Assembly: GCA_963744255.1 (NCBI GenBank)
Contig: CAVUSZ010000024.1
Location: 22,542 to 46,541, forward strand
Length of the DNA: 24,000 nt
Source: an uncultured beta proteobacterium
Lineage (GTDB): Bacteria; Pseudomonadota; Gammaproteobacteria; Burkholderiales; SG8-39
Reading direction: 5' to 3'
The notes beneath the pieces are model-generated. The model was not told the origin of the DNA, searched no databases, and saw only the letters and a list, made by a program, of their open reading frames with translations. Both the position numbers and the translations under genes were made by a program. Numbering within the stretch: position 1 is the stretch's first letter; each line of letters begins with the position of its first letter. This document shows, in pieces, positions 2,761 to 21,099 of this stretch.

Positions 2761-3126
2761 TCAGATCCCCGGTAGCAGCACTTTCAGTTTCGCGAGAACC
2801 TCCGCAACGACTTTCTTCGGCGCACGTGCGGCAAGGTCAGCGTTACGGGAGCGCCAGTCAAGCGCCTTGATCTGGTCGGCCAGCACCACACCTTTGGCGC
2901 CAGCGAGGTCGGTCTCCGCGTCCACTTCGAACGGCCAGCCTTTGACCCGGGTGGTAAGGGGGCAGCAGAGCGCGAGGTTCGCCGTAGCGTTGTAGGCGCG
3001 GGGCGAGAGGACGAGGGCGGGTCGGCGCCCGGCCTGCTCGTGCCCTGACTGCGGATCGAAGTCGAGATAGACGATGTCGCCCTGATCGGGCGACCAGTCC
3101 GGGTCGGCCGGGCGCCGGCCCGCCAT
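2761..3126 (-). CDS. mazF: MazF/PemK-family type II toxin endoribonuclease
   Basis: The translation (GDIVYLDFDPQSGHEQAGRRPALVLSP...LALCCPLTTRVKGWPFEV...VLADQIKALDW) matches the PemK/MazF fold signature. ATG at 3126-3124 overlaps the mazE stop as TAATG. The track ORF starts at GTG 3132; the ATG is preferred. Confidence 0.85.
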   Translation of the reverse strand: MAGRRPADPDWSPDQGDIVYLDFDPQSGHEQAGRRPALVLSPRAYNATANLALCCPLTTRVKGWPFEVDAETDLAGAKGVVLADQIKALDWRSRNADLAARAPKKVVAEVLAKLKVLLPGI

Positions 3127-3371
3127 TACCACACTTCAACCCCGCGCCGCGGGCCCCAATCCGCTTCGTCGTGCCGGGCGTGACTCGCGGCGTCGGCGAG
3201 CAGATCTTCGAGTCGGTAGGCCGGCTTCTTGCGCACGCGCTCGATACGGATCGCCCCGTCGACCACGCTGATGCGCACGCGCTGATCCACGGCGAGACCC
3301 GCCTCGCTCAGCAGCGAACTAGGCAGGCGAAGCGCCGGGCTGTTGCCCCACTTCCGGATGACTGATTCCAT
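3126..3371 (-). CDS. mazE: MazE-type antitoxin (AbrB/SpoVT-like DNA-binding domain)
   Basis: 81-aa ORF beginning MESVIRKWGNSPALRLPSSLL (the swapped-hairpin AbrB/MazE motif), with an acidic C-terminal tail. It lies immediately upstream of mazF and overlaps it. An SD (GAGGG) sits about 8 nt upstream of the ATG. Confidence 0.85.
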   Translation of the reverse strand: MESVIRKWGNSPALRLPSSLLSEAGLAVDQRVRISVVDGAIRIERVRKKPAYRLEDLLADAASHARHDEADWGPRRGVEVW

Positions 3372-3446: not shown

Positions 3447-3902
3447 TCACGAACGGAACCGTGCGACCTCGCCCGGCTTACGCAGCATCTTGTCGACGTC
3501 GCCGGCGTGCATCTCCTCGGCCTGGATCATCTGCCGCGCGTACTCCTCAAGCGTCACGGAGCGGTCCTTGACCAGCTCGTGGAGCTCGCGGTAGAGCGCG
3601 AGGGCCTCGCCCTCATTCTCGAGCGATTCGCGCAGGATCGAGCCGATGTCGTGCTGGTGGGAGTCGAGCAGCGGACCGATCGCGAGCGAGGGGTAGCCGC
3701 CGAGCATCGTGATCATCTCGCCCGCGGCCTGCGCATGCGCGAGCGCCTCGGTCGCCTGCTCGTGCAGCCACGAGACGATCGGGATCCGCCCGTACCCGAA
3801 GACCATGAGCGAGTAGTGCGTGTAGCGGACGACCCCGGCCAGCTCCTGCTCGAGGATGCGGTTGAGCGTGGCGATCGCCTTGTCCTTGTCGAGCTCGGGC
3901 AT
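3447..3902 (-). CDS. Bacterioferritin-like / ferritin-like diiron protein
   Basis: 151-aa ORF with an SD (GGAGG) 6 nt before the ATG. It aligns by eye with bacterioferritin: LNRILEQELAGVVRY, LHEQATEALAHA, ESLENEGEAL, IQAEEMHAGD (E...ExxH-type diiron ligands). The spacing of the first ExxH motif is atypical, so I do not call it bona fide Bfr. Confidence 0.75.
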   Translation of the reverse strand: MPELDKDKAIATLNRILEQELAGVVRYTHYSLMVFGYGRIPIVSWLHEQATEALAHAQAAGEMITMLGGYPSLAIGPLLDSHQHDIGSILRESLENEGEALALYRELHELVKDRSVTLEEYARQMIQAEEMHAGDVDKMLRKPGEVARFRS

Positions 3903-3960: not shown

Positions 3961-5133
3961 TCACCGGAGCACGCCGCGCCGGGCGAGGCTCCGCATCAGG
4001 TGGCTCGCACCGAAGCTCCACGGCGCCGCGTCGGATGACCGCACCATGCGGTTCGTGAGCGCGCCCAGCTCGGGTGCCGAGATGGTCACGATGTCGCCGA
4101 TCTTGTGCGTGAACCCCTGACCCGGGGCGTCGCGGTCCTCGACCGGCGCGAACATCGTGCCGACGAACAGGACGACCCCGTCCGGATACTGGTGGTTCGC
4201 GCCGATCATCTGCCCCACGAGGTCGGCCGGATCCCGGCTGATGCGCGCGATCGACGACGTGCCGCTCATCCGAAACCCGTCGGGACCCGACACCTCGAGC
4301 TTCACCGTGATCCCGCGTACGGTGTCGAGCGAGAAAGCCTCATCGAACAGCCTGACGAACGGTCCGACGGCGCACGAGGCGTTGTTGTCCTTGGCCCGGC
4401 CGAGCAAGAGCGCCGAGCGGCCCTCGATGTCGCGCAGGTTCACGTCGTTGCCGAGCGTCGCGCCGACGATCTTGCCGCCCGACGAGACGACGAGCACGAC
4501 CTCGGGCTCCGGGTTGTTCCAGGTCGAGTCCGGGTGCAGCCCCGCGTCCATGCCGTGGCCGACCGCCGACATCGGCTGCCCCTTGGTGAAGATCTCGGCG
4601 TCGGGCCCGATGCCGACCTCCAGGTACTGCGACCACAAGCCCTTGGCGACGAGGAGCTCCTTCAGCGCGGCTGCCTTGGCCGACCCGGGCTTGAGCGCCT
4701 GCAGGTCGGTGCCGATCGTAGCGAGCATGTCCTCGCGGATCGCCGCGGCCCGCTCCGGCTCTCCGCGCGCCTGCTCCTCGATCAGCCGCTCGAGCAGCGA
4801 GGCGATGAAGGTCACGCCGGCCGCCTTGATCGCCTGCAGGTCGATCGGCGCGAGCAGCCACGGCCGGCCCGGATCGCGCACCTCGGCCGGGGTGTTGGCG
4901 AGAATGTGGTCGAGGCTGCCGAGCCGCTCGCCGCGGGCGGCGCGCAGAGTCGCGGCCGGTTTTTCTGCTTCGCACAAATCGCGGATCGTCGGCGCGGCCT
5001 CGGTTACGTCGTAGACGCCGTCGGCGCGGACCGCTACCACCGCCGGTCCCTGCACGTCCGGGCGCCAGACGCGGCCGGCGAGGGCTGCAAGCGTCGCGTC
5101 CGCAGGGAGGGTGGCTTCGCTAAGGAGACGCAC
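3961..5133 (-). CDS. Fumarylacetoacetate hydrolase (FAH)-family protein, long (~390 aa) form
   Basis: 390-aa ORF. The C-terminal half carries FAH-like blocks: NNPEPEVVLVV, GNDVNLRDIEGRSALLLGRAKDNNASCAVGPF, GTMFAP...GDIVTI. The start is GTG 5133 with no clear SD, so start confidence is lower. Confidence 0.7.
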   Translation of the reverse strand: MRLLSEATLPADATLAALAGRVWRPDVQGPAVVAVRADGVYDVTEAAPTIRDLCEAEKPAATLRAARGERLGSLDHILANTPAEVRDPGRPWLLAPIDLQAIKAAGVTFIASLLERLIEEQARGEPERAAAIREDMLATIGTDLQALKPGSAKAAALKELLVAKGLWSQYLEVGIGPDAEIFTKGQPMSAVGHGMDAGLHPDSTWNNPEPEVVLVVSSGGKIVGATLGNDVNLRDIEGRSALLLGRAKDNNASCAVGPFVRLFDEAFSLDTVRGITVKLEVSGPDGFRMSGTSSIARISRDPADLVGQMIGANHQYPDGVVLFVGTMFAPVEDRDAPGQGFTHKIGDIVTISAPELGALTNRMVRSSDAAPWSFGASHLMRSLARRGVLR

Positions 5134-5216
5134 GACCGAATGGTAGAGTGTGCGGGGCGGCGGGGCAATGCGAGAAAGGGCTAGACTTCCCTTCCCCGCG
5201 CGGCAGGAGGCCCGCC

Positions 5217-5648
5217 ATGCCCCAGCGAACCGTTCGCAGCATCATCGAGAACCAGAATCTGCTTACCGCGTCGCCCGAGACGACGGTGGCCGAAGCGGCC
5301 GGACTGATGAAACGCAGCCGGGTGGGCGCGATCATGGTCGTGGAGCGCGGGCGCCTCGCAGGCATCTTCACCGAGCGCGACGCACTCTTCCGCGTCGTCG
5401 CGGAAGGGCGCGATCCGCAGGCTACCCGCCTCGTCGATGTGATGACCCGCGATTGCCAGACGATCGATGCGGACAAACCGCTCGGCCATGCGCTGCACAT
5501 GATGTACGAGGGCCGGTTCCGGCACGTGCCGGTGGTCGAGAACGGGAAACCGCTCGGCGTCGTCTCGGCGCGCGACGCGCTCGGGCCGGAGCTCCTGGAG
5601 TTCGAGGCGGAGCTCGTCAAGCGCGAGCACATCCGGGAGATTCTCTGA
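5217..5648 (+). CDS. CBS-pair domain protein
   Basis: ATG 5217 is preceded by GGCAGGAGG. The translation has two CBS-like repeats (GAIMVVERGRLAGIFTERD... and FRHVPVVENGKPLGVVSARD). The upstream part of track ORF 5148..5648 lacks an SD and overlaps the divergent promoter region. Confidence 0.8.
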   Translation: MPQRTVRSIIENQNLLTASPETTVAEAAGLMKRSRVGAIMVVERGRLAGIFTERDALFRVVAEGRDPQATRLVDVMTRDCQTIDADKPLGHALHMMYEGRFRHVPVVENGKPLGVVSARDALGPELLEFEAELVKREHIREIL

Positions 5649-5658
5649 CCTGCGAGGT

Positions 5659-6372
5659 TCACCGGCCACCCGGCCGAACCTTGCGTTTCCACAGCTCCCA
5701 GGGGCGGCCGATCACCCGGTCGTTGGTCGCGGCCGCGAGCCGTGCCTCCTCGGGCTCCAGGAAGTTGATCGCACCGAGCCGCGCCGCATCCATCTGCAGG
5801 CGGGCGTTCGTCTCGGTGTAGATCGCGCGGTACACCACCTGCTGGATCGAGCCGCCGACCGCGACCGAGCCGTGGCCGCGCATCAGCGCCACCGTCCGGT
5901 CGCCGAGGGTCCGCGCGAGCGCGTCGGCGAGCGCGTTGTCGCGGATCAGCATGTCCGTCATTCCACCGGCGGCGCGGATCTCGAAGATCGGGGCGCCGGC
6001 GCCCAGAAACGCGCTCATGTGGTAGACCGGCCGCAGACTCGCGCCGGTGACGCCGAACGGGATGACGCTCGGCGAGTGGCTGTGGACCACCGCCATCACG
6101 TCCGGGCGACTGGCGTAGATGGCGCCGTGGATGAACCGCTCGAGATAGGGCGTGCGTGTGTCGCCGCCCATGGCATTGCCGTCGAGATCGAACTCCATGA
6201 TGTCGCCGGCTGTCACCAGCGCCGGGGCCATGCTGCGCGCGAGCAGAAAACGGTCCGGCCGCTTGTCGTGACGCGCGCTGATGTGGCCGAAGCCGTCGAC
6301 GACGCCTTCGGCGTACAGGATGTGATTCGCTACGACGAGATCGTCGACGAGCGCTGGTTCCGCCGCGCTCAT
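5659..6372 (-). CDS. Class II aldolase/adducin-family protein (aldolase, decarboxylase or dehydratase-like)
   Basis: The start is ATG 6372 (MSAAEPALVDDLVVANHILY...), 4 nt after the upstream gene's stop. Family motifs present: GFGHISAR, VVHSHSP (HxH metal ligands), LMRGHGSVAVG. The 66-aa N-terminal extension in the track ORF (to 6570) is R/S/P-rich and overlaps the upstream gene, so it was rejected. Confidence 0.85.
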   Translation of the reverse strand: MSAAEPALVDDLVVANHILYAEGVVDGFGHISARHDKRPDRFLLARSMAPALVTAGDIMEFDLDGNAMGGDTRTPYLERFIHGAIYASRPDVMAVVHSHSPSVIPFGVTGASLRPVYHMSAFLGAGAPIFEIRAAGGMTDMLIRDNALADALARTLGDRTVALMRGHGSVAVGGSIQQVVYRAIYTETNARLQMDAARLGAINFLEPEEARLAAATNDRVIGRPWELWKRKVRPGGR

Positions 6373-6376
6373 TGCC

Positions 6377-7402
6377 TTATCCGAAGCGCTCGCGCGCGAG
6401 CCGCGCCCCGGCCCCGAGCGCTTCGAGCTTCCGGAGGGCGACGTCGCGGTCCATCGGCGCCATGCCGCAGTTGGTGCAGGCAATGATGCGCTCTTTCGGC
6501 AGGTGCTTCGCCGCCTCGGCGATCGTGGCGGCGACCTGCTCGGGCGTCTCGACCGCGTCGGTCGCGACATCGATCACCCCGACCAGCACGTCCTTGCCCT
6601 CGAGCAGGCCGATCAGGCGGGTCGGCACCTTCGAGTTCGCGCACTCGAGCGACACCTGGCCGATCCGGCTCTGCGCGAGCGCCGGGAAGATCTCCTCGTA
6701 CTGGCGCCACTCGCTTCCGAGCGTCTGCTTCCAGTCGAGGTTCGCCTTGATGCCGTAGCCGTAGCAGATGTGCACCGCCGTCTTGCACTCGAGGCCTTCG
6801 GCGGCGCGGTGCAAGGCGGCTATGCCCCAGCGCTTGACGTCGTCCATGTAGACGTTGAACGCCGGCTCGTCGAACTGGATCACGTCGACGCCGTCGGCGG
6901 CGAGCGCGCGCGCCTCCTCGTTGAGGCACTCGGCGAACGCCATCGCCATCTTCACCTTGTCGCCGTAGTGGCTGTCGGCGATCGTGTCGACGATCGTCAT
7001 CGGGCCCGGCAGGGTGAACTTGAGCTCGCGTTGCGTGTGCGCCCGCGCGAGGCGCGCTTCGGTCGCGTGCACCCGGCCCTTCGGACGCAGGCGCCCGACG
7101 ACCGTCGGCACCAGCGCCTCGTAGCGGTTGTTGCGGATGCCGAGCTTCACCTTCCGATCGAAGTCGATGCCTTCGATCGCCTCCAGGAAGCCGTGCACGA
7201 AGTGCTGCCGCGACTGCTCGCCGTCCGCGACGATGTCGATGCCGGCGTCCTCCTGCGCCTTGAGCCAGAGGAGCGTCGCGTCCCGCTTCGCTTCCGCGAG
7301 CGCCGCACCCGCGAGCTTCCAGCGCGGCCAGAGCTTGTGCGTCTCGGCTAGCCAGCCGGGCTTCGGCAGGCTGCCGGCGATCGTCGTCGGGAAGAGCGTC
7401 AT
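6377..7402 (-). CDS. Single-domain MetE-like protein (cobalamin-independent methionine synthase C-terminal / Meth_synt_2 family, Zn-dependent alkyl transferase fold)
   Basis: ATG 7402 (MTLFPTTIAGSLPKPGWL...) overlaps the beta-subunit stop as ATGA. MetE catalytic-domain signatures present: IAGSLPKP, DGEQSRQHF, FDEPAF, VHICYG (His-x-Cys), SLECANS, CTNCGM (Cys). At ~341 aa it has only the catalytic domain. Confidence 0.85.
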   Translation of the reverse strand: MTLFPTTIAGSLPKPGWLAETHKLWPRWKLAGAALAEAKRDATLLWLKAQEDAGIDIVADGEQSRQHFVHGFLEAIEGIDFDRKVKLGIRNNRYEALVPTVVGRLRPKGRVHATEARLARAHTQRELKFTLPGPMTIVDTIADSHYGDKVKMAMAFAECLNEEARALAADGVDVIQFDEPAFNVYMDDVKRWGIAALHRAAEGLECKTAVHICYGYGIKANLDWKQTLGSEWRQYEEIFPALAQSRIGQVSLECANSKVPTRLIGLLEGKDVLVGVIDVATDAVETPEQVAATIAEAAKHLPKERIIACTNCGMAPMDRDVALRKLEALGAGARLARERFG

Positions 7403-7947
7403 ACCCACACCTGGAGGACGTACTCGTACGGCGCTTGCGCGTTCACCATGTCGACGCGCTGCAGCTTGATCCTCAGGCCGTCTTTCGTGCGCTTGAGATG
7501 GTGGCGATAGGAACCGGCGAAGTGGCGAAGCTCGTCGCGACGAAGCTCGACCATGTGGAAGCGCGAGCGGACATGCACGTCGCCCGACCGCGGATCGACT
7601 TTCTCGACCACGACGTTCGACACGACGTGGTTCGTGCCCCACTCGGGCTGCTGCGACCACGCATGCGGGTGCGTCACCCGCTTCATCCGCACCGTCATCA
7701 TGTCGCGATCCTCGGCGAAGATGGACGGGACGCCGTCCCACGTCGTGTAGTGCGGCGCCGGCGGCATCCAGTACATCCCGTCCGCCGCGAAGAGATCGAT
7801 GAACGCCTTCCACTCCTTGCCGTCGAGCGCCTCGGACTGGCGGTAGAGCAGCGCTTCGACCTCGCGCTGCAGCTCGACGCCGTTCGGCTTGCGTGCGGCC
7901 TTCTTCGCCGGCGCCCGCTTCCTCGTCTTCTTCGCCGCCACGGTCAC
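7399..7947 (-). CDS. Aromatic-ring-hydroxylating oxygenase beta (small) subunit, with a basic N-terminal extension
   Basis: GTG 7947 overlaps the alpha stop as GTGA. The core (LLYRQSEALDGKEWKAFIDLFAADGMYWMP ... VSNVVVEKV ... FAGSYRHHLKRTKDGLRIKLQRVDM) matches the Ring_hydroxyl_B / NTF2-like fold. No other ATG/GTG/TTG lies before the conserved core, so the AAKKTRKRAPAKKAARKP tail must be translated. Confidence 0.85.
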   Translation of the reverse strand: MTVAAKKTRKRAPAKKAARKPNGVELQREVEALLYRQSEALDGKEWKAFIDLFAADGMYWMPPAPHYTTWDGVPSIFAEDRDMMTVRMKRVTHPHAWSQQPEWGTNHVVSNVVVEKVDPRSGDVHVRSRFHMVELRRDELRHFAGSYRHHLKRTKDGLRIKLQRVDMVNAQAPYEYVLQVWV

Positions 7948-9251
7948 GCCTCGGCGGTCAGGTACTTCAGCCACGCGCGGAACTGGTTGCGCATGGGCAC
8001 CTCGCTGCAGCCGTTCGACGACCGCATCACTTCGCCCTCGATCCTGTCGCGGCCGTAGTCGCGGTGGAAGCTCACCCAGTCGCCGCCCCGGGAGGCGAGT
8101 CCCCACTGGCCCTTCTGCCAGTTCTCGAGGTCGTCGGCGTTCACCATCGTCGCCGGCGAGTTGACGAGGTTGTAGTACGAGAGCGAGCGCCGGTAGATCG
8201 CCTCCGGCGCGCCCTTCAGCCGGAAATGCCAGATCTCCGAGAGCGTGCGATCCGGCGCGATGGGCCGGATCGCGCGCAACTGCTGCAGCGGCGACTGGAT
8301 CGAGAGACAGGGGTAGACGAGGACGTGGTGGATGTTGCGCGAGAGGAATTCCTCCTTCTTCTGCTCGCCGTACGCCTTCGCGAGAAGCTTCTCGTACGCC
8401 ACGGTGTCGGGGTCCTGCGGCCGCAGGCCCATGTAGCCGCCGAGGATCGTATGTCCGTGCGGATAGCCGATCGTCTCGAGCGAGTCCCATTTCTCGAACG
8501 GGATCACGAACGCCGACAGCATGTGGTAGTGCAGCGGTTTCTCGCCGGTACGGCGCTGGATCTGGAACTCGACGTCGGCCGCCGCGCGCCCGGTGGATTC
8601 GTGCGTGACCGAGGGATGGACCGCGTCGAGCTGATTCTCCATGAAGAACTTCCAGTTCGAGCGCTGGACGACGCGATAGCAGTTCATCACCACCTCGACC
8701 TGCCCTTCAGGCGACCGGTCGCAGATGTCGTCGAACGCGACCTTCGCCGGGCCGAGCCACTCGAGGAGCGACGGACCGTCGGCGGCGAGGCTCGCGAACA
8801 CGAAGCCGCGGTACGACTCGACCCGCGGTGCGCGCTTCATGTTGCGGTCGTAGTTCCCGAACGTCGTGTCCTCGTAACCACGAGGCAGCGGCACGGACTC
8901 GTTCGTGCCGTCGTAGCGGAAGCGCCAGGCGTGGTACGAGCAGGTGAGCGCGTCGCCGGCGTTGCCGTGGCGCGCGCCGCAGACCTGCGTGCCGCGGTGC
9001 GGGCAGCGGTTGTAGAGGACGTGGATCGCGCCGCGGTGCCCCCGGACCAGCACCATCGGCTGCCGCCCGATCTGGAACGTCCAGAAGTCGCCCGGTTTCT
9101 TCACCTGCGACGCGTGGCCGGCGTAGATCCAGCACTTGTCGAAGATCCTCTGGATCTCGAGCTCGAACAGGTCCGGGTCGGTATAGCAGAGCCGATGCAC
9201 CCGGTCGGGCTCGACCAGCGCCTTCAAGTTGGGGATGCGCTCCTGCAGCAC
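7944..9251 (-). CDS. Rieske [2Fe-2S] aromatic-ring-hydroxylating oxygenase alpha (large) subunit
   Basis: Rieske motif CPHRGTQVC...CSYHAWRF. Mononuclear-iron motif NWKFFMENQLDAVHPSVTHES. The N-terminal block YTDPDLFELEIQRIF is typical of the salicylate/benzoate/anthranilate hydroxylase group. The chosen start is GTG 9251 with GGAGG 5 nt upstream. The track ORF start at 9401 adds an R/A-rich extension, which was rejected. Confidence 0.9.
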   Translation of the reverse strand: MLQERIPNLKALVEPDRVHRLCYTDPDLFELEIQRIFDKCWIYAGHASQVKKPGDFWTFQIGRQPMVLVRGHRGAIHVLYNRCPHRGTQVCGARHGNAGDALTCSYHAWRFRYDGTNESVPLPRGYEDTTFGNYDRNMKRAPRVESYRGFVFASLAADGPSLLEWLGPAKVAFDDICDRSPEGQVEVVMNCYRVVQRSNWKFFMENQLDAVHPSVTHESTGRAAADVEFQIQRRTGEKPLHYHMLSAFVIPFEKWDSLETIGYPHGHTILGGYMGLRPQDPDTVAYEKLLAKAYGEQKKEEFLSRNIHHVLVYPCLSIQSPLQQLRAIRPIAPDRTLSEIWHFRLKGAPEAIYRRSLSYYNLVNSPATMVNADDLENWQKGQWGLASRGGDWVSFHRDYGRDRIEGEVMRSSNGCSEVPMRNQFRAWLKYLTAEA

Positions 9252-9379
9252 GGCGGCCTCCGAAGGGATTCTCTCGCGGGAACGCGGAACATAGCGCCGG
9301 CCGCGGGCGGCGGCAAGTCGCGCGCAGGTCCCTGCGGCCAAGCGCCGCGCCGTCGCCTCGACGACGCGCCCGGTATGGG

Positions 9380-9408
9380 TTGTCGCATGCATGCGATGCA
9401 AATACTAT
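9380..9408. promoter_or_regulatory. Candidate sigma70-like promoter (TTGTCG-17 nt-TACTAT, plus strand) with an embedded perfect 14-bp palindrome TCGCATGCATGCGA (9383-9396)
   Basis: The hexamers and spacing were read directly from the sequence. The palindrome is exactly self-complementary and fills the spacer. It lies in the 386-bp divergent region between the Rieske operon (start 9251, minus) and the MFS gene (start 9638, plus). Confidence 0.35.
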
Positions 9409-9637
9409 CGGGGAGTGCGCTTCGAGTACGATCCCAAGAAGGCTGAGGCGAACCTCGAGGCCTTGCGGAACATCTCTCGGAAACGGGGGAGCCAGTCACC
9501 GGGACCGCTGCGCCAAGTCTTGCGACAGGAAATGCCCGGGTATCTGCGCGGGTTGACTGCGCGACCGATCCGGACGACCCGCGAACGGCCGGGTGCTTGA
9601 GCGCGCCGCGCGTCGTGCCGGCGCATCTGGAGCCGAG

Positions 9638-10831
9638 ATGACCCGGCCGTCGCGCATCCTGCCGCTCATCATCTTCTCGCAGTTTGCGGGTACGTCGCTC
9701 TGGTTTGCCGGCAACGCCGTGCTCGCGGACCTGCAGCGGGAGTGGGGCCTCCCGGCCGAGGCGCTCGGCTATACGACGTCGGCGGTGCAGTTCGGCTTCA
9801 TCGCCGGGACGCTCGCGTTCGCGTTTTTCGCGGTGGCCGACCGCATGTCGCCGCGGATCGTGTTCTTCGTCTGCTCGCTTGCAGGCGCGGCGGCCAACCT
9901 CGCGATCGATGCCCTCGCGGAAGGGTTCTGGTCGCTCGCCGCGCTGCGGTTCGCGACCGGGTTCTTCCTGGCCGGCATCTATCCGGTCGGCATGAAGATC
10001 GCGTCCGGCTGGTACCGGAGCGACCTCGGCAACGCGCTCGGTTTCCTCGTCGGTGCGCTGGTGGTCGGCACCGCCTTCCCTCATCTGATCAAGGGGCTCG
10101 GACAGGCCTTTCCCTGGTCGGTGGTCATCGTCGCAACGTCTGTAGTCGCCGCGCTGGGCGGCGTCGCGATGCTCGTCGGCGTGCCGGACGGACCCCACCT
10201 CGCCAAGGGGACGAAGTTCGATCCGCGGGCGCTGGTCGTGATCTTCCGGTCGTCGCGCTTCCGCGCCTCGGCGTTCGGATACTTCGGCCACATGTGGGAG
10301 CTGTATGCGTTCTGGGCGTTCGTGCCGTTCTTCCTCGCCGCTCACTTCGCTGCGCGCGGCGAACCGGGGCTGAACATGTCGCTATGGTCGTTCGCGGCAA
10401 TCGCGGCCGGCTTCCTCGGCTGCGCGGGCGGCGGGCTCGCCAGCCTGCGCGCGGGCAGCGCGCGGGTCGCGTTCGCCCAGCTCGCGGCCTCGGGCGTCTG
10501 CTGTGTCGTCTCGCCGCTCCTGTTTCACGCGCCGACGCCGGCGTTCCTCGCGTTCCTCGTCTTCTGGGGCGTCGTCGTGGTGGGCGACTCGCCGCAGTTC
10601 TCCGCGCTCAACGCGCAGAACGCGCCGCGCGAGCTGGTCGGGTCGGCGCTGACGATCGCGAATTGCATCGGCTTCGCGATCACCATCGGCAGCATCCAGC
10701 TGCTTAACTCGCTCGCGGTTTCGATGAGCGCGTCGCTCCTGTTTCTCGCTCTCACGCCCGGACCGGTGCTCGGCTTGATCGCGCTCGCCCCGCTGCTATC
10801 GGGGTCAAGCGGGCTCAAGCCGGCGGCATGA
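9638..10831 (+). CDS. MFS transporter
   Basis: ATG 9638 (MTRPSRILPLIIFSQFAGTSLWF...) with GGAG upstream. The ~397-aa product is highly hydrophobic, with about 12 predicted helices and an MFS-like loop (ADRMSPRIV). The track ORF start at 9593 is less likely. Confidence 0.85.
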   Translation: MTRPSRILPLIIFSQFAGTSLWFAGNAVLADLQREWGLPAEALGYTTSAVQFGFIAGTLAFAFFAVADRMSPRIVFFVCSLAGAAANLAIDALAEGFWSLAALRFATGFFLAGIYPVGMKIASGWYRSDLGNALGFLVGALVVGTAFPHLIKGLGQAFPWSVVIVATSVVAALGGVAMLVGVPDGPHLAKGTKFDPRALVVIFRSSRFRASAFGYFGHMWELYAFWAFVPFFLAAHFAARGEPGLNMSLWSFAAIAAGFLGCAGGGLASLRAGSARVAFAQLAASGVCCVVSPLLFHAPTPAFLAFLVFWGVVVVGDSPQFSALNAQNAPRELVGSALTIANCIGFAITIGSIQLLNSLAVSMSASLLFLALTPGPVLGLIALAPLLSGSSGLKPAA

Positions 10832-10954
10832 CGCGACGGCGAGCAGCACCACCATCGCGCCGGGCGCCGCGAGTGGACCGAAAGTGAGGAGCAGCGGGAG
10901 CGGCAGGGCGCTGCCCGCCAGGAAGAAGTCGGCGCGATTGGCGTGTCGGTTCAT
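10805..10954 (-). CDS. Hypothetical small (49 aa) membrane protein
   Basis: ATG 10954 is preceded by a strong SD (GGGAGG) with a 6-nt spacer. The product MNRHANRADFFLAGSALPLPLLLTFGPLAAPGAMVVLLAVAS... is dominated by a ~32-residue hydrophobic stretch. It overlaps the convergent MFS 3' end by 27 nt. I recognise no family, so this could be a GC-driven artefact. Confidence 0.25.
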   Translation of the reverse strand: MNRHANRADFFLAGSALPLPLLLTFGPLAAPGAMVVLLAVASCRRLEPA

Positions 10955-11162
10955 GGCCAACCTCCCACGCTCGCCGCCCAGACACTGCACCGTGCCGTCG
11001 TACCTGATGACGGTGGGTGGACCCGGCCGGCTGCGGGCGCGCACGTCGCGATCGTCGAGGATGACACGCAGCTGGTGCGACTGGCTGACGGCCGCGGCCA
11101 CCTGCTTCCAGACCACCCGCGCGATGCGATCTATGCCCGCCCGGCCGAACCCGGATGACCGT

Positions 11163-11663
11163 TCAAGACGGCGGCGGCTGAGGAACGACCTGCTGCCAGC
11201 CGCCCGAACACTCCTTGACGTAGGGATAATAGGCCAGGGCTTGGGGGCAGTAGTACCAGTAAGCGGGAGCTGGCTGCTGCTGCGGCGCTGGCTGCCAGAC
11301 CCCTTGTTCGATGTAGGTAGGAGGGTAGTACGGCGCCGACGGGTAGAAGACCGGGGGAGGATAGAAGAAGGGCGACGTGTAGGCCCAGCCGCCGAAGATC
11401 ACGGGCGCGCCGACGAACACACCGACTCGGCCGTGGCCCTGGTGGAAGTGCTTGCCGCCGTGGCCATGGTGGAAGTGCTTCCCGCCTTGCCCATGGTTAA
11501 AGTGTTGGCCGCCGTGAAAACTGCCGCCGCGATGCCCCCCGCCCTGAACACCGGCGCCATGAGATCCCCCCCCACGGCCGCCGCCGCGAGCAAGCAGGGA
11601 CTCGCTCGCAAGGGTGCCGAGCAGGAAGAGTACCAACGCAAACGTGCCGCCGCGCCGCATCAT
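11163..11663 (-). CDS. Secreted His/Gly-repeat, Pro/Tyr-rich protein of unknown function (candidate periplasmic metal-binding protein)
   Basis: Tandem ATG ATG at 11663/11660. It has a signal-peptide-like N-terminus (MMRRGGTFALVLFLLGTLASESLLA) and then a Gly/His-rich region with three 9-aa repeats GG(K/Q)HF(H/N)(H/Q)G(H/Q). The C-terminus is Pro/Tyr-rich and ends YWYYCPQALAYYPYVKECSGGWQQVVP. That two-Cys motif recurs at the C-terminus of small exported betaproteobacterial proteins. Confidence 0.7.
   Translation of the reverse strand: MMRRGGTFALVLFLLGTLASESLLARGGGRGGGSHGAGVQGGGHRGGSFHGGQHFNHGQGGKHFHHGHGGKHFHQGHGRVGVFVGAPVIFGGWAYTSPFFYPPPVFYPSAPYYPPTYIEQGVWQPAPQQQPAPAYWYYCPQALAYYPYVKECSGGWQQVVPQPPPS
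11433..11513. repeat. Three tandem 27-bp repeats inside the His/Gly-rich gene
   Basis: Units: 11433-11459 gtggccctggtggaagtgcttgccgcc; 11460-11486 gtggccatggtggaagtgcttcccgcc; 11487-11513 ttgcccatggttaaagtgttggccgcc. On the minus strand they encode GGKHFHQGH, GGKHFHHGH and GGQHFNHGQ. Confidence 0.85.
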
Positions 11664-11871
11664 GATTCGCAAGCCGCTGCTGATAACAGGCGACACTTGC
11701 AGAATAGTCCCGATCGTTCGCCGGCGCCACGTTGTTTCAGGCTGTTACAACTCCGGAGCCCGGCGCCGTCGGCGTCGACCCGACTGTGTCGTTATCCCTC
11801 GATCCGGTCGCAGGCGCGATCGGCGAGGGACCGCCGCAAGCGCCGCGCGGAGAGCGCACCGGGCTGCGCCG

Positions 11872-12831
11872 TCACGCTGTCCTCCCGTCGATGGGTGTGA
11901 GCAGGGACTGCCCGGCGAAGTGCGCGCGCAGGTTCCCCCGCACCAGCTCGAACGCTCCCCGGAACGCCTCGTGCGTGAAGCCGGCGACGTGCGGCATCAG
12001 CACGACGTTATCGAGGCGCCGCAAGGCTTCGGGCACCGCGGGTTCGTCCTCGAACACATCGAGCGCGGCGCCTGCGATCGCGCGGCGCTCGAGCGCGTCG
12101 ACGAGCGCCGCGGTGTCGACGATGCTGCCGCGGGCGACGTTGACGAGGTAGCCGGCGGCCCCGAGCGCCGCGAGCACGCGCGCGTTCACGAGGTGCCGCG
12201 TGGCGGGGCCCCCCGGGGTGCACACGACCAGGAAATCGCTTTCGGCCGCGAGCGCCTCGACGCTCTCGACGTAGCGGTAGTCCGTGTCCGCAGCGCGCGT
12301 CGGCTTCGAGTAGGCGATCGTCACGTCGAACCCGGCGCCGCGGCGGGCGATCGCCTGCCCGATGTTGCCGAGGCCGAGGAGGCCGAGTCGCTTGCCGGTG
12401 AGCGTGTGCGTGAGCCCCCGAGCCCCGGTGAAGCGACCGGCGCGGACCTCGCGGTCGCGCCGCGGGATGTCGCGCTGGAGCGCGAGCATCATCCCGAGCG
12501 CAAGATCGGCGACGGAGGCCGCGTTCGCGCCGGGTGCGTTGGTCACGGGGATGCCGCGCTCGACCGCCGCGGCGAGGTCGATGCCCTCGTAGCCGGCGGA
12601 GAAAAGCGTGATGATCTCGAGCCGCGGCAGGGAGGCGATCAGCTCACGGCTCGCGCCCGAGGACGAGTTCGTGACGATCGCGCGGATGTTCGGTGCGACG
12701 GCGCGGATCGCCGCGGCGCGATCCGGGGTGCTGGCGACGGGACGGACCGTGAACTCACGCTCGAGCTCGCCGTGCCATGGCGCGACGAACGGGGTGAGGA
12801 TCAGGAGCTCCGGTTTCGCGTCGGACGCCAT
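11872..12831 (-). CDS. D-isomer-specific 2-hydroxyacid dehydrogenase (glyoxylate/hydroxypyruvate reductase-like)
   Basis: 319-aa ORF. NAD-binding motif LGLLGLGNIGQAIARR. Catalytic-region blocks GYLVNVARGSIVD and DVFEDEP...NVVLMPHVAG (Arg/Glu/His triad context). Confidence 0.9.
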   Translation of the reverse strand: MASDAKPELLILTPFVAPWHGELEREFTVRPVASTPDRAAAIRAVAPNIRAIVTNSSSGASRELIASLPRLEIITLFSAGYEGIDLAAAVERGIPVTNAPGANAASVADLALGMMLALQRDIPRRDREVRAGRFTGARGLTHTLTGKRLGLLGLGNIGQAIARRGAGFDVTIAYSKPTRAADTDYRYVESVEALAAESDFLVVCTPGGPATRHLVNARVLAALGAAGYLVNVARGSIVDTAALVDALERRAIAGAALDVFEDEPAVPEALRRLDNVVLMPHVAGFTHEAFRGAFELVRGNLRAHFAGQSLLTPIDGRTA

Positions 12832-13580
12832 GCGGCAAGCGCGGGCGGTGGTATGTCAGGTGATTCACGGACAGCATAGCATCGTCCGTTTCGAGGGTGG
12901 ACAACCGCCTTGTAAGCGTTTAGCTGGGCCTTGTAAGTCGAGCCTTGGGGGATGAGGCTCCGGCCGGCGGCGAGCTTCTTCGCCTCGTCCAGGACGACGC
13001 GCTGGGCTTCCGTTCGGACCGGGAGTTCCCGATCCCGCCCGCCTTTGGTCCAGGAGTCCTTCAGGCGCAGGGCGTTTCCCTGGTCGGCCCAGCCGGGCCG
13101 GATCTTGATCGACTCCTCCCGCCGGAGCCCAAATGCCTCCTGCAGCCGGAGCGACATGGCGACGTATGGGGAGCGAATCCGCTCGACCTGCCCATGGTCG
13201 AGGTCCTTGCCCTTGTCGCGGTTGGTGACGTACTGGCGCCGCTCGATGCCGTAGGCGTCGTAGTCCTTGCCTTCCTGCGTGAACTCGAATTCGACCTTCT
13301 TGTCGGTGGTCAACCTATCGAATAGCACCTGGTCCTTGACCTTGAAGGTCATCGTCATCGCGGGCCAGTTCATGCTCTTGACGGGCTCGTGCGCGAACGT
13401 GACGGTTCCCGCCTTGGGATCGACCTTCTTTACGACCCCGATTGCCTTGTGCGCCGTTGGTTTGGTGGCTGTTGGCTTGCTAGGCATCTCCATGCCTTTC
13501 ATGTCCTCCATCTTTTGCTGGGCCAGCACGCCGGTGGAGAGCACGGAGCCGAAAACGAGTGCGGCCAGTAGGCTTTTCAT
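12801..13580 (-). CDS. cusF: Chimeric ORF: CusF-like periplasmic Cu(I)/Ag(I)-binding protein (aa 1-107) reading in frame into an integrase fragment and then flank-derived sequence
   Basis: SD GAGGAG lies upstream of ATG 13580, followed by a signal peptide (MKSLLAALVFGSVLSTGVLAQQ). The CusF core is GVVKKVDPKAGTVTFAHEPVKSMNWPAMTMTFKVKD...KKVEFEFTQEGKDY, with the His/Trp/Met-x-Met ligands present. Where CusF homologues end a few residues later, the frame continues for 152 more residues and overlaps the dehydrogenase start by 31 nt. Confidence 0.75.
   Translation of the reverse strand: MKSLLAALVFGSVLSTGVLAQQKMEDMKGMEMPSKPTATKPTAHKAIGVVKKVDPKAGTVTFAHEPVKSMNWPAMTMTFKVKDQVLFDRLTTDKKVEFEFTQEGKDYDAYGIERRQYVTNRDKGKDLDHGQVERIRSPYVAMSLRLQEAFGLRREESIKIRPGWADQGNALRLKDSWTKGGRDRELPVRTEAQRVVLDEAKKLAAGRSLIPQGSTYKAQLNAYKAVVHPRNGRCYAVRESPDIPPPALAAWRPTRNRSS
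12906..13259 (-). mobile_element. Internal fragment (~118 codons) of a tyrosine recombinase / phage-integrase-family gene, lacking both N-terminus and catalytic C-terminus
   Basis: Residues 108-225 of the chimeric ORF read DAYGIERRQYVTNRDKGKDLD...YVAMSLRLQEAFGLRREESIKIRPGWADQGNALRLKDSWTKGGRDRELPV...QRVVLDEAKKLAAGRSLIP..TY. This matches my recollection of an integrase family common on betaproteobacterial plasmids and genomic islands. The downstream HGLRHxYA...Y catalytic blocks are absent. Confidence 0.6.
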
Positions 13581-13628
13581 CTGAGTCTCCTCACGAGAGG
13601 TGTTAAGGGAACGGGAAGGAATCGATCT

Positions 13629-16600
13629 CTAGTCCGGCAAACGATCCTCGGGTTGAACGGTTCTAGGGGTGCTCCTTTCAACGCTAGGTCCAGCTCGCTT
13701 GCGTGGGCGACGGATGAGCAGATACGCGGCCGGGATTACGAACATGGAAAGCAGCGGTGCGGTGATCATCCCGCCAATCATCGGCGCCGCGATCCGTTGC
13801 ATGACCTCGCTGCCCGTGCCGGCCGACCACATGATCGGCGCCAGGCCGGCGAGAATCACCGCCACCGTCATCGCCTTCGGCCGCACACGGAGTACCGCCC
13901 CCTCTTCGATTGCTTCGAAAAGCGTCGCCTCGTCCGCCGGCGCCCCGGCGGCGAGCCGGCGCTCCAGCGCCTGCTTGAGGTAGATCAGCATCACCACGCC
14001 GAACTCGGCGGCGACCCCCGCGAGTGCGATGAACCCGACCGCGCTCGCGACCGACAGGTTGTGGCCGAGCGCCCACACGTACCAGAACCCGCCAACGAGC
14101 GCGAACGGCACCGCGGCCATGATCAGCGCCGCCTCGTCGAAGCGGCGGAAGGCAAGATAGAGCAGCACGAAGATGATCGCCGCCGTGAACGGAATGACGA
14201 CGGCGAGCCGCTTCATCGCGCGCTCGAGATACTCGAACTGCCCCGACCACTGCACAGACACGCCCGGTGGCAGCTTCACGCCGCCCGCGACTGCGCGTTG
14301 CGCGTCGTGCACTACGGACGCGAGGTCGCGCCCCCGGATGTCGACGTAGATCCAGCCGGCGAGGCGCGCGTTCTCGCTACGCAGCATCGGCGGGCCGTCG
14401 GTGATCCCGATCGCTGCGACTGCGCCAAGGGGGACCTGCGCGCCGGTCTCAGTCACGATCGGAAGCATCTTCAGCTTCCCGACCGAGTCGCGCAGCTCGC
14501 GCGGGTAGCGAACGTTGATCGGGAAGCGGCGGCGGCCTTCGATCGTCTCGCCGACGTTCTCCCCGCCGATCGCCGCCGAAACGACCGACTGGACGTCGGC
14601 GACGTTCAGGCCGAAGCGCGCCGCGGCCGCGCGGTCGACGCGCACGTCGATGTAGCGGCCGCCAGTGACGCGCTCCGCGAGCGCCGAGGTGACGCCGGGG
14701 ACGTCCTTCATCAGCCGCTCGATGTCTGCGGCCGTGCGCTCGATCTCTGCGAGGTCGTTGCCCGACACCTTGATCCCGAGCGGGCTCTTGATCCCGGTCG
14801 CGAGCATGTCGATCCGGTTGCGGATCGGCGGAATCCAGATGTTGGTGAGCCCCGGGAGCTTCACCAGCCGGTCCAGCTCGTCGACGAGCTTCTCCGGCGT
14901 CATCCCCGATCGCCACTCCGCGCGCGGCCGGAGCTGCACCGTCGTCTCGACCATCTCGAGCGGCGCCGGGTCGGTCGCCGTCTCGGCCCGGCCGACCTTG
15001 CCGAACACGCGCTTCACCTCCGGAACGGTGGCGATGAGCCGGTCGGTCTGCTGCAGGAGCTCCGCCGCCTTCGCCGCCGAGATACCGGGCAGGGCCGAGG
15101 GCATGTACAGCAGATCGCCCTCGTATAGCGGCGGCAGGAACTCGCCGCCGAGCCGCGAGGCGGGAATCAGGGTCGCGAGGAAGACGAGCGCCGCGACGGC
15201 TAGCGTCGCCTTTGGCCAGCGCAGGACGATGGCGAGACACGGCCGGTACGCCGCGATCAGGAACCGGTTGATCGGGTTCCGCCGCTCCGCGGGGATCCGC
15301 CCGCGGACGAGATAGCCCATCAGCACCGGGATCAGCGTCACCGCAAGCCCGGCGGAAGCTGCCATCGCGTAGGTCTTGGTGTAGGCGAGCGGCGCGAACA
15401 GGCGGCCCTCCTGCGCCTCGAGCGCAAACACCGGGACAAACGAGAGCGTAATGATGAGTAGCGAGAAGAAAAGCGCGGGACCGACTTCGACCGCCGCGTC
15501 GCCGATCACGCGCCAGTGCTCGTCGCGACCGATTGCGGCGCCCGGATGCTCGTGCGCCCAAGCTTCGAGCTTCTTGTGCGCGTTCTCGATCATCACCACC
15601 GCCGCGTCGACCATCGCGCCGATGGCGATCGCTATGCCGCCGAGCGACATGATGTTGGCGTTCACGCCCTGGTACTGCATGACGATGAAGGCCGCCAGCA
15701 CGCCGAGCGGCAGCGTAATGATGGCGACGAACGCCGATCGCAGGTGGAGCAGGAAGATCGCGCAGACGAGCGCGACGACGGCGAACTCCTCGGCGAGCTT
15801 GTCGCGCAAGTGCCGGACCGCGCGCTCGATCAGGCCGGAGCGGTCGTAGGTCTCGACGATCTCGACACCGTGCGGCAGGCTCTTCCGCAGCTCGGCGAGC
15901 CGCGCCTTCACCGCGCCGATCGTCTCGAGCGCGTTCTTGCCGGCGCGCATGACGATCACACCGCCGGCTACTTCGCCTTCGCCGTCGAGCTCGGCGATGC
16001 CGCGCCGCATCTCGGGACCCATCTGCACGCGCGCGACGTCCGCGAGCGTCACCGGCACCCCGCCCTTGCCGACGAGGAGTGGGATCGTGCGGAAGTCGTC
16101 GAGCGTCTTCAGGTAGCCGCTCGCGCGCACCATGTACTCGGCCTCGGCCAACTCGAGCACCGAGCCGCCGGTCTCGCGGTTCGCGTTCTGGATCGCCGCG
16201 ATCACCTTGGAGTGCGGGATACCGTAGGCGCGCAGGCGATCCGGGTCGAGCACCACCTGGTACTGCCGCACCATGCCGCCGACGGTCGCGACCTCAGCCA
16301 CGTTGGGCAGCGCCTTCAGCTCGTACTTGAGGAACCAGTCCTGGAGCGCGCGCAGCTCGCCGAGGTCGAGCCGGCCCGAGCGGTCGAGGAGGGCGTACTG
16401 GTAGACCCAGCCGACGCCCGTCGCATCGGGCCCGAGCGCCGGTTTCGCCTGCGCCGGCAGCCGCGACTGCACCTGGTTGAGGTACTCGAGCACGCGCGAG
16501 CGCGCCCAGTACGGATCGGTGCCGTCCGCGAAAAGGATGTAAACGAACGAATCCCCGAAGAACGAGTACCCGCGCACCGTCTTCGCGCCGGGCACCGACA

Positions 16601-16820
16601 GCATCGTCGTCGTCAGCGGGTAGGTGACCTGGTCCTCGACGATCCGGGGTGCCTGCCCCGGCCAGGTCGTGCGAATGATCACCTGCACGTCGGAGAGATC
16701 GGGGATCGCGTCGAGCGGTGTGCGCAGCACCGAATGGACGCCCCAGGCCGTCACGAGCGCCGTCGTCATCAGCACCAGGAACCGGTTCGCAATCGACCAG
16801 CGAATCAATCCTGCGATCAT
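13629..16820 (-). CDS. cusA: CusA/SilA-type heavy-metal (Cu+/Ag+) efflux RND permease
   Basis: 1063-aa ORF. CusA-specific blocks include [30 protein letters not shown] and [37 protein letters not shown] (the Met of the CusA methionine cluster context). The architecture is that of a 12-TM RND protein. Confidence 0.95.
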
Positions 16821-16886
16821 GGCTGTTTCATCCGACTCGGGGGATCTGCAAGGAGGTGTGCCCCTTGTTCCAGCGGCGCACGACGA

Positions 16887-18350
16887 TCATCTCAACGGCT
16901 CCACCTTCGTCGCCTGGAACTCACCGTCCTTCATCGTGAACTCGAAGCGGATGCGGTCGCCGGCCTTGACGCCCGCCGGCAGCCCCGACTTCGGCGCGGC
17001 GAACTCCATGGTCATCCCGCCCATCCCCGCGCTCGGGATCGGCCCGTGCTTGATCAGGAGGGACTTGTCGTTGCCACTCACGAGGACGCCTTCGGCCTTG
17101 TGGACGGACGCGGACGCTTCGGCACCAACTCCTTCCAGCCGCGCGAGCGTTGCGCGCAGGCTCGCCTCGGAGTCGATCAAGAACTGGCCCGACACCACCA
17201 CCCGGTCGCCGGCCTTGAGCCCCTTGCGGATCTCGGAGTCGCCGCCCGTCTCCATCCCGACCTCGACGTCGACGGCGCGGAACTTCCCCTCGCCCGCGGC
17301 GAGGATCACGACGCTCCGCTCGCCGGTCTTGATTACTGCTTCGGCCGGGATCAGGAGCGCTGCGCGGCCGCGCCCGCCGAGCGTGACCGTCGCATACATC
17401 CCCGGCTTCAGCTGGCCGCCCGGGTTCGCGACCTCGATGCGCGCGCGAACCGTGCGCGTGACCGGGTTGACGTCAGGGAGGATGGCGCTCACCCGGCCGG
17501 TGAACACGTCGTCGGGATATGCCGGGACCCGCGCCGCGGCGCGCTCGCCGGGGACGAGCATCCCGGCCTGCGCCTCCGGGACCTCGGCAACCACCCACAC
17601 GGTGCTCAAAGCCGCGATGCGGAAGAGTGTCGTGCCGCCGGCCACGGTCATCCCCTCGCGTGCGCCCAGCTCGGCGACCACGCCGGACACCGGCGCGCGC
17701 AACGTGACCCGCGCCTGCACCTTGCCTTCACGCTCCACGGCCACGACTTGCTCCTCGGTCATCCCGAGCAGCAGGAGCCGCTCGCGCGCGGCGCGCTGGA
17801 GCGGCTCCACGTCGTGACCCGCGAGACGTCGCACAGCGAGGTACTCGGCTTGCGCGCCTGCCCACTCGGGAAAGAGGATCTCGACCAGCGGCTGGCCTTC
17901 GCGCACCGGGTCGAGCGGTGCCCGGACGTGCAACTTCTCGACGAAGCCGGCGGTGCGGGGCTGCACCAGGACCACGGACCGCTCGTTGTACTCGACGTTG
18001 CCGACCGCGGTGAGCTTCGGCGCGAGCGATCCCGACCGCGCCTCGGCGGTGCGAACGCCGAGGTTCTGCACGACGCGCGGGCTGATGCTGACGCCGGACT
18101 CGTCGCCGCCCGCGTCGGCGTACTTCGGCACCAGCATCATGTCCATGAACGGCGACTTGCCCGGCTTGTCGAAGCGCTGCTGCGGGTACATCGGGTCGTA
18201 CCAGTACAGCACCTTGCGGTCCCCGGCTCCTTCGGCGACGGGCGCTCCCGGCGTCGGCGCGTGCGGCTGCGACATCCCGAACCAGTAGCCGGCGGCGGCG
18301 GCGAGGCCGAGCACCGCGACTGCCAGCGCTGCATAGAGGAGGCGGCTCAC
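16887..18350 (-). CDS. cusB: CusB/SilB-type periplasmic adaptor (MFP) with a C-terminal CusF-like metallochaperone domain
   Basis: GTG 18350 overlaps the cusC stop as GTGA. The N-terminal metal-binding block is YWYDPMYPQQRFDKPGKSPFMDMMLVP. A HlyD-like barrel-sandwich/beta-barrel core follows. The last ~75 aa (HKAEGVLVSG...LLIKHGPIPSAGMGGMTMEFAAP...GDRIRFEFTMKDGEFQATKVEPL) resemble CusF. Confidence 0.9.
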   Translation of the reverse strand: MSRLLYAALAVAVLGLAAAAGYWFGMSQPHAPTPGAPVAEGAGDRKVLYWYDPMYPQQRFDKPGKSPFMDMMLVPKYADAGGDESGVSISPRVVQNLGVRTAEARSGSLAPKLTAVGNVEYNERSVVLVQPRTAGFVEKLHVRAPLDPVREGQPLVEILFPEWAGAQAEYLAVRRLAGHDVEPLQRAARERLLLLGMTEEQVVAVEREGKVQARVTLRAPVSGVVAELGAREGMTVAGGTTLFRIAALSTVWVVAEVPEAQAGMLVPGERAAARVPAYPDDVFTGRVSAILPDVNPVTRTVRARIEVANPGGQLKPGMYATVTLGGRGRAALLIPAEAVIKTGERSVVILAAGEGKFRAVDVEVGMETGGDSEIRKGLKAGDRVVVSGQFLIDSEASLRATLARLEGVGAEASASVHKAEGVLVSGNDKSLLIKHGPIPSAGMGGMTMEFAAPKSGLPAGVKAGDRIRFEFTMKDGEFQATKVEPLR

Positions 18351-21095: not shown

Positions 21096-21099
21096 CGCC

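Follow-up and report, generated by a model that had tools for sequence, protein, structure and literature searches.

What is a methionine synthase doing directly behind the genes of an aromatic-ring oxygenase? The question is raised by a 24,000-nucleotide stretch of DNA (hereafter the window) from an uncultured beta proteobacterium (GenBank assembly GCA_963744255.1, contig CAVUSZ010000024.1, positions 22,542 to 46,541), in which genes for the alpha and beta subunits of a Rieske oxygenase, a MetE-like zinc protein and a class II aldolase-family protein follow one another on the minus strand. We found that alpha, beta and the MetE-like gene, here assigned to the MesD family, are a conserved unit, usually accompanied by a divergent major facilitator superfamily (MFS) transporter. 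Synthesis by MesD and its partner MesX is a widespread aerobic route to methionine, independent of folate and B12, whose methyl donor and O2 requirement were unexplained in 2021 (PMC7857596). A MesD lineage placed behind a well-understood class of oxygenases offers an experimental handle on that donor.

The genes of the module and its upstream region are listed below, in window coordinates.

7944-9251, minus strand: Rieske oxygenase alpha subunit, IadD-like, 435 amino acids (Pfam Rieske and Ring_hydroxyl_A; best structures 9o71 and 7yls/8h2t)
7399-7947, minus strand: oxygenase beta subunit, 182 amino acids (GTG 7947) or 180 amino acids (GTG 7941) (Pfam Ring_hydroxyl_B)
6377-7402, minus strand: predicted MesD-family core methionine synthase, lacking the folate domain and Zn-dependent, 341 amino acids (NCBIfam NF006589, PDB 3RPD, BLASTP)
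5659-6372, minus strand: class II aldolase-family protein, 237 amino acids (Pfam Aldolase_II; matches to PhtC and 2z7b)
9593-10831, plus strand: divergent MFS transporter (start at 9638 in the public gene caller; Pfam MFS_1, 77.7 bits)
9252-9592, no strand: intergenic region between the MFS and alpha genes, with presumed divergent promoters

An earlier note, made from the DNA sequence alone, had described four minus-strand open reading frames (ORFs) packed edge to edge, and both their coordinates and their packing are confirmed by the ORFs and junction sequences. The alpha gene starts with GTG, preceded by GGAGG 6 nucleotides (nt) upstream, and its stop codon TGA (7946-7944) overlaps the GTG at 7947-7945 to give GTGA. 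The public gene caller begins beta at another in-frame GTG, at 7941, and the alpha/beta junction is a 4-nt overlap with the former start or a 2-nt gap with the latter. The beta stop codon TGA (7401-7399) overlaps the MesD ATG (7402-7400) as ATGA, a 4-nt spacer separates the MesD stop codon TAA (6379-6377) from the aldolase-family ATG at 6372, and the aldolase-family gene ends in TGA at 5661-5659. Alpha, beta and MesD are predicted to be co-transcribed and are probably co-translated. All five Pfam domains predicted in the note score above their gathering thresholds (Rieske 63.7 and Ring_hydroxyl_A 38.7 bits in alpha, Ring_hydroxyl_B 94.9 in beta, Meth_synt_2 106.2 in MesD and Aldolase_II 108.8 in the fourth gene), and the catalytic signatures that it listed (CPHRG...CSYHAW, DAVHPSVTH, VHICYG, SLECANS, CTNCGM, HSHS and RGHG) can all be read in the translations.

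Conservation of the alpha-beta-MesD unit

A genome scan with the window MesD protein returned 80 loci, among which alpha and beta lay upstream of MesD only in the seven with MesD at least 80% identical to the query; no locus with MesD at 71-79% identity had both subunits. The reverse test, a metagenome scan with alpha that also returned 80 loci, gave the same picture from the other side: where alpha was at least 80% identical and there was room downstream, beta and then MesD followed in 18 of 19 loci, whereas MesD was absent from all 55 loci whose alpha was 64-77% identical, beta being found in all of these that had room. The sole exception in the first group, L097 (7868-8753), shows 87% identity in alpha and beta yet no MesD in the 885 bp after beta, which may reflect a deletion or rearrangement. 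In total the alpha-beta-MesD order was found on ~25 independent contigs, drawn from ENA, JGI and NCBI assemblies and GTDB genomes, and all of the module members found belong to uncultured Burkholderiales. Metagenome-assembled genomes with the module include CAWGCC01 (MFD06229.bin.3.483), CAVQUV01 and DATIDG01. At the beta/MesD junction the genes overlap or are separated by less than 10 nt in most of the loci that we class as tier 1, and the 554-bp beta-MesD gap of L099 contains no ferredoxin-like ORF.

Upstream of alpha, divergent MFS homologues (74-95% identity) were found in 15 tier-1 loci, and a divergent short-chain dehydrogenase/reductase (SDR) gene lies near the trio in 10 loci. Other recurrent neighbours include Amidohydro_2, TctC, an amidase and RidA pair, NicX, a Mo-hydroxylase, enoyl-CoA hydratase (ECH) and CoA ligase, a set that suits the catabolism of aromatic or N-heteroaromatic acids. 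On the 3' side of MesD most relatives carry MarR/ECH/CoA ligase, ECH/Amidohydro_2/Iso_dh, ECH/thiolase or LeuCD-like genes. As the flanking genes vary between loci, the trio moves as a unit. The earlier note had taken all four genes as the unit; the MetE-like gene is indeed co-conserved with the oxygenase, but the aldolase-family gene is replaced in most relatives. Its suggestion of a wider regulon likewise survives in part, for the MFS gene (in the 15 loci above) and for the FAH-family gene within the sub-lineage that bears the aldolase-family gene, while the Bug binding protein and the LigI-like amidohydrolase are not specifically co-conserved.

MesD identity and the absence of MesX

The MetE-like protein scores 567.8 bits against NCBIfam NF006589 (cut-off 392) and consists of a single catalytic domain (PF01717, residues 4-328) without the N-terminal folate-binding domain. 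It matches PDB entry 3RPD with 418 bits and 56% identity. This entry, whose structure was determined with Zn and selenomethionine, is the MesD of Shewanella sp. W3-18-1, for which the roles of the substrate-binding residues have been described, among them Tyr226 in a MesD-specific insertion (PMC7857596). The homocysteine/methionine-binding residues Ser22, Glu73, Asp188 and Tyr226 (3RPD numbering) and the four Zn ligands are conserved in the window protein, and the alignment with 3RPD shows GSLPKP, DGEQ, QFDEP, HICYGYG, SLEC and CTNCG to be kept. Price et al. set the threshold for MesD at a BLASTP score of at least 390 bits (~55% identity) to Acinetobacter baylyi ACIAD3523; with a plasmid-borne, MesX-linked MesD of A. 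venetianus as a proxy, the window protein scores 404 bits (59% identity), and against the chromosomal MesX-linked MesD of V. paradoxus it reaches 519 bits (72% identity). By sequence, the protein is a MesD-family core methionine synthase, an assignment that goes beyond that of a generic MetE-fold enzyme.

The family alignment has 110 invariant columns out of 345, and the Rieske-linked MesDs, which form one clade in a neighbour-joining tree, show no clade-specific substitutions apart from Leu/Met and Ile/Leu exchanges. Given the intact homocysteine site, the 72% identity to a MesX-linked MesD and the lack of lineage-specific substitutions, a lyase or aryl-alkyl-transfer reaction of a new kind with the oxygenated aromatic, along the lines of the note, is unlikely.

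To function, characterised MesD requires both MesX (DUF1852) and O2 (PMC7857596); our literature search found no paper after 2021 that settles the MesD mechanism or the donor of its methyl group. Two MesX queries gave no tblastn match in the window or in any of the 166 loci, genomic or metagenomic, that make up L001-L166, the upstream ORFs held no match to PF08908 (MesX), and neither MesX nor an FMN (flavin mononucleotide) reductase lies within 6-10 kb of MesD in any member of the Rieske-linked clade.

The canonical operon of Comamonadaceae and Cupriavidus has a divergent LysR/MetR regulator followed by an FMN reductase (msuE/sfnF-like), MesX and MesD, and the V. paradoxus chromosome carries the same FMN reductase-MesX-MesD arrangement. 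MesX lies directly 5' of MesD in all five canonical loci inspected, and in a plasmid collection nearly all records with a MesD homologue (220) contained MesX as well (210 records). The canonical MesDs are 91-94% identical among themselves and 72-73% identical to the window MesD. An NADH-dependent FMN reductase leads the mesX-mesD operons of L167 (6276-9026), L170 (5271-8026), L171 (4328-7026) and L177 (4373-8100), which suggests that MesX consumes reduced flavin and O2. In L170 (AP026971.1) and L171, both from Comamonadaceae plasmids, the FMN-reductase-mesX-mesD cassettes are bordered by Tn3-family/IS1071 transposases, and the 91-94% identity of MesD across genera suggests a recent horizontal spread of such plasmid cassettes. 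One MesX-linked homologue bears the name 'xecA1 2-hydroxypropyl-CoM lyase', which is an automatic label.

Beyond the Rieske-linked clade, MesD is found next to two other kinds of oxygenase. In a second MesD clade (Xanthobacteraceae, Hyphomicrobiales) the gene lies 23-90 nt 3' of a 3-hydroxybenzoate-6-monooxygenase-like flavin adenine dinucleotide (FAD) enzyme in 10 loci, and these FAD enzymes share only 50-60% identity among themselves. Such pairs occur in L059 (5637-7893), L028, L030, L031, L049, L055, L063, L077 and L079, often with alpha/beta-hydrolase genes nearby. In three further loci (L060, L082, L083) an MsnO8-type luciferase-like monooxygenase gene is directly 5' of MesD. The linkage is weaker in five Ramlibacter loci (L037, L047, L051, L065, L080), where the MsnO8 gene is ~500 bp away and a divergent response regulator intervenes.

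The oxygenase and its genomic setting

Among solved structures the alpha subunit matches 9o71 and 7yls/8h2t (IadD) best, with 341 and 338 bits, and it is 36% identical to IadD. Its Fe ligands H212, H217 and D374 align with H216, H221 and D377 of IadD, and the Cys and His ligands of the Rieske centre are conserved; with a Rieske motif, a 2-His-1-carboxylate site and a beta subunit, the pair has the features of an alpha3beta3 Rieske non-haem-iron oxygenase. Seven of the nine residues that line the indole-3-acetate (IAA) pocket of IadD are kept, including Arg329 and Tyr362, while Gln takes the place of both Leu211 and Lys322, as Gln207 and Gln319 of the window alpha. At 36% identity, and with a pocket kept at seven positions of nine, the pair falls outside the IadDE indole-3-acetate oxygenases, and its pocket predicts as substrate a carboxylated aromatic or heteroaromatic compound related to IAA with an extra polar group. 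The more distant alpha relatives without MesD gave no clue to the substrate, their context being variable (ABC transporter, LysR, MarR, TctC, thiolase, alpha/beta-hydrolase). The first ~25 codons of the beta gene (7873-7947, minus strand) encode a Lys/Ala/Arg-rich, low-complexity basic tail (VTVAAKKTRKRAPAKKAARKPNG), and a similar tail is present in L097 and L099; to our knowledge, a Lys/Ala-rich tail is unusual among ring-hydroxylating beta subunits.

As the earlier note had observed, genes for a ferredoxin, reductase, cis-diol dehydrogenase or ring-cleavage dioxygenase are missing from the 24-kb window, and the annotated relatives (L001-L006, L172-L176) also lack a reductase or ferredoxin gene. 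A 108-kb contig from a soil metagenome (ERZ25039541 contig_81607, ENA) contains a nearly identical copy of the window in reverse complement, and on it LigAB is located just beyond the window's limits. In Variovorax the reductase IadC was reported to be dispensable, host reductases taking its place (PMC12633357), so a missing redox partner at the locus is unremarkable; a reductase encoded elsewhere would supply the electrons of the Rieske enzyme.

Downstream of MesD the window differs from most of its relatives. Two further genes need to be placed here.

5217-5648, plus strand: CBS-domain protein, outside the module (gene call and Pfam CBS)
3961-5133, minus strand: FAH-family protein (Pfam FAA_hydrolase, 30.6 bits; PDB 9kkt, 426 bits)

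The product of the fourth gene has PhtC (NF053537) as its best NCBIfam match, with 91.6 bits against an equivalog cut-off of 200, which leaves it outside the PhtC-type 3,4-dihydroxyphthalate decarboxylases. Its best PDB match is 2z7b (Mlr6791, 192 bits), which we take to be a pyridine-dicarboxylate decarboxylase of vitamin B6 catabolism; a literature search on Mlr6791 and on 9KKT found nothing. The HxH...H metal motif is kept. The decarboxylase option, one of several that the note had entertained, is plausible in view of these two matches, and the gene probably encodes a decarboxylase that depends on metal and acts on a hydroxylated aromatic or pyridine (di)carboxylate. The gene is present 3' of MesD only in L001/L007, L002/L088, L092 and L094 (~5 of the ~25 contigs), followed by the FAH gene in L001, L007 and L094, and its product is most likely an accessory decarboxylase that acts with the FAH-family protein in the sub-lineage of the window. 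In L094 the CBS gene is absent and the aldolase-family and FAH genes adjoin, so the CBS gene resembles an insertion into a former five-gene operon of the window lineage. In L002 (9786-17020; also in L003, L004 and L088) the aldolase-family gene is directly followed by a second cluster, iad- or ibuprofen (ipf)-like, with a CoA ligase, a second Rieske alpha/beta pair, an SDR, a thiolase-like protein, a DUF35-SDR protein and a cyclase.

The MFS transporter scores 55 bits, well under the cut-off, against NCBIfam TIGR00893 (2A0114, D-galactonate transporter subfamily), presumably a group of anion:cation-symporter type. The intergenic region between its gene and alpha contains a perfect 14-bp palindrome, TCGCATGCATGCGA, at 9383-9396, which is unique to the window contig: it is missing from the 23 other tier-1 upstream regions, even from that of the 97-98% identical L007. 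The 24 tier-1 regions upstream of alpha share no conserved motif and no MetR box, the window locus has no LysR/MetR-type regulator, and a promoter and terminator scan of 5000-9700 gave nothing above shuffled controls, with no sigma-70-like site in 9252-9592. Rfam scans at gathering thresholds of the window, eight tier-1 loci and eight other MesD loci returned only tRNAs.

The window has a G+C content of 68%, and its remainder also encodes TctC/Bug, partial Amidohydro_2, ferritin-like, MazEF, 2-hydroxyacid dehydrogenase and ABC ATPase proteins. The PemK/MazF toxin and ferritin-like genes (2761-3132 and 3447-3902, minus strand) lie between the FAH and TctC genes, with the MazE antitoxin upstream of the toxin gene on the public contig. 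Beside the catabolic genes is a heavy-metal island (12801-19609, 20293-22019) comprising CusF, a CusA-like RND protein, CusB with a C-terminal CusF domain and a CusC-like OEP, then ArsR, an MIP-family channel and GNAT. On the minus strand, an ORF at 11163-11696 (166-177 amino acids) encodes a protein rich in Gly, His, Pro and Tyr, which has an N-terminus resembling a signal peptide and no family match; we rejected it as a partner of the module, a secreted-type protein conserved only in L007 (83% identity). Two other ORFs, of 338 amino acids at 10884-11900 (plus strand) and of 190 amino acids at 5120-5692 (minus strand), have no family match and are spurious.

Competing readings and known systems

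The module joins an IadDE-like oxygenase for an aromatic or N-heteroaromatic carboxylate to a MesD-type homocysteine S-methyltransferase and an MFS transporter. We tentatively favour, with somewhat less than even confidence, the reading that MesD takes a methyl group from the compound degraded by the oxygenase pathway, which would make MesX unnecessary. The imported compound, or its oxygenation product, would be the methyl source; MesD would move the methyl, before or after oxygenation, onto Zn-activated L-homocysteine to yield methionine; and the oxygenase step would stand in for the O2-dependent step that FMN reductase and MesX perform in canonical systems. In the sub-lineage of the window, the class II aldolase-family decarboxylase and the FAH-family enzyme would process the oxygenated ring further. 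What leads us to this reading is an intact MesD at a locus without the MesX that characterised MesD needs along with O2; the tight linkage within one MesD clade (18 of 19 loci against 0 of 55); a gene polarity like that of the canonical operon, with parallel pairings of FAD and luciferase-like monooxygenases 5' of MesD; and the catabolic setting, with a co-conserved transporter and genes for aromatic or N-heteroaromatic acids. A more general form, which we consider unlikely, makes the Rieske pair a non-orthologous replacement of FMN reductase and MesX, with the FAD and luciferase-like monooxygenases doing the same in the sister clades, so that the methyl group of MesD would generally derive from the O2-dependent oxidation of an organic substrate, which for this module would be an imported aromatic or N-heteroaromatic carboxylate.

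Several observations weigh against a metabolic coupling of the two enzymes, and most of them also favour the alternative that MesD is an ordinary paralogue relying on MesX (and FMN reductase) in trans, either a frozen insertion, retained since operons seldom break up, or an oxidation-tolerant synthase co-expressed with an oxygenase that produces reactive oxygen species. MesX is common in Burkholderiales, including Variovorax, which makes action in trans possible. MesDs without an adjacent MesX are common in varied contexts (thioredoxin, acyltransferase, GGT and MFS genes), most of the paralogues at 71-79% identity lie in unrelated contexts without an oxygenase, and the orphan MesDs of Variovorax (82-84% identical), distinct from the canonical group at 91-94%, look like second copies. 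The Rieske-linked MesDs lack clade-specific substitutions, and ten IadD-pocket and iron-ligand positions of the oxygenase are the same in all 82 homologues, MesD-linked or not (55 of them MesD-less), so the function of the oxygenase is independent of MesD; MesD joined, in one sub-lineage, the operon of an oxygenase that has its own function. The oxygenase adjacencies amount to only ~3-4 independent events, and once shared ancestry is counted their enrichment is modest. Neither a riboswitch, whether for SAM (S-adenosylmethionine), B12 or another ligand, nor a MetR box links the operon to methionine regulation, we know of no chemistry by which a Rieske reaction would create a methyl donor, and we can name no methyl-bearing substrate. 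On the other side, the trio order and the stop/start overlaps are held over ~25 contigs while both flanks change, the only two adjacencies of this MesD lineage that are deeply conserved each join it to an aromatic-acid oxygenase, which is always 5' of MesD, and a separation of MesD from MesX looks unusual, judging by the plasmid records and the canonical loci. We regard reliance on MesX in trans as the main rival reading, if on the less probable side.

A linear pathway is also conceivable, in which a Rieske-formed epoxide or hydroxylated intermediate would be opened by, or transferred to, a thiol at the Zn enzyme and then decarboxylated by the aldolase-family protein. Epoxyalkane:coenzyme M (CoM) transferase, a Zn-thiolate alkyltransferase of the MetE superfamily that pairs genetically with alkene monooxygenase, is a precedent for such a link with an oxygenase, the genes of the window are translationally coupled, and IadCDE has been reported, in a preprint, to be an epoxide-forming monooxygenase (PMC12633357). 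We nevertheless find this pathway improbable: the homocysteine/methionine residues and the whole active-site region are those of proven methionine synthases, most relatives lack the aldolase-family gene, and homocysteine would be used stoichiometrically with no visible recycling step. That the genes adjoin by chance or through an assembly artefact is scarcely credible. The alpha and beta genes of L097, without MesD, would fit such an explanation, but the order recurs across independent ENA, JGI, NCBI and GTDB assemblies (18 of 19 loci, more than 20 contigs), and the co-occurrence counts contradict the chance adjacency of the MetE-like gene that the note had considered.

Should the favoured reading be true, these bacteria would harvest the methyl group of methionine straight from a catabolic substrate, and if the oxygenases are replacements for MesX, the substrate of the oxygenase would reveal the methyl-donor chemistry of MesD. 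If the coupling is false, the locus still defines an uncharacterised and abundant IadDE-like oxygenase family of soil Burkholderiales, and it counsels caution over 'methionine synthase' annotations within catabolic islands.

All parts of the module come from known families, and the alpha-beta-MesD combination is undescribed in the literature that we searched: queries pairing Rieske or ring-hydroxylating oxygenases with methionine synthase or Meth_synt_2 found none, in agreement with the earlier note, which knew of no pathway with this combination. Set beside epoxyalkane:CoM transferase, the window's Zn enzyme is a predicted MesD with an intact homocysteine site, and no CoM genes accompany it. 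PhtC and Mlr6791 (2z7b) have the Aldolase_II fold and the HxH...H motif in common with the fourth protein, the PhtC score being below the cut-off. The IadCDE system of Variovorax (7yls/8h2t, 9o71; PMC10374108, PMC12633357) has an alpha/beta Rieske oxygenase like the window pair, whereas the window locus is without the iadC reductase and the iadF-K genes; the separate iad/ipf-like cluster beside the module in L002 indicates that the module alpha is a paralogue acting on another substrate. The closest comparison is with the MesD/MesX system (PMC7857596): the window MesD has the same single Meth_synt_2 domain, Zn ligands and methionine/homocysteine residues, Tyr226 included, and its identity is 56-59% with gammaproteobacterial MesD and 72% with the MesD of Variovorax and Acidovorax. 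The module departs, however, from the defining genomic feature of that system, the adjacency of MesX, its MesD standing instead in an operon behind the Rieske alpha and beta subunits.

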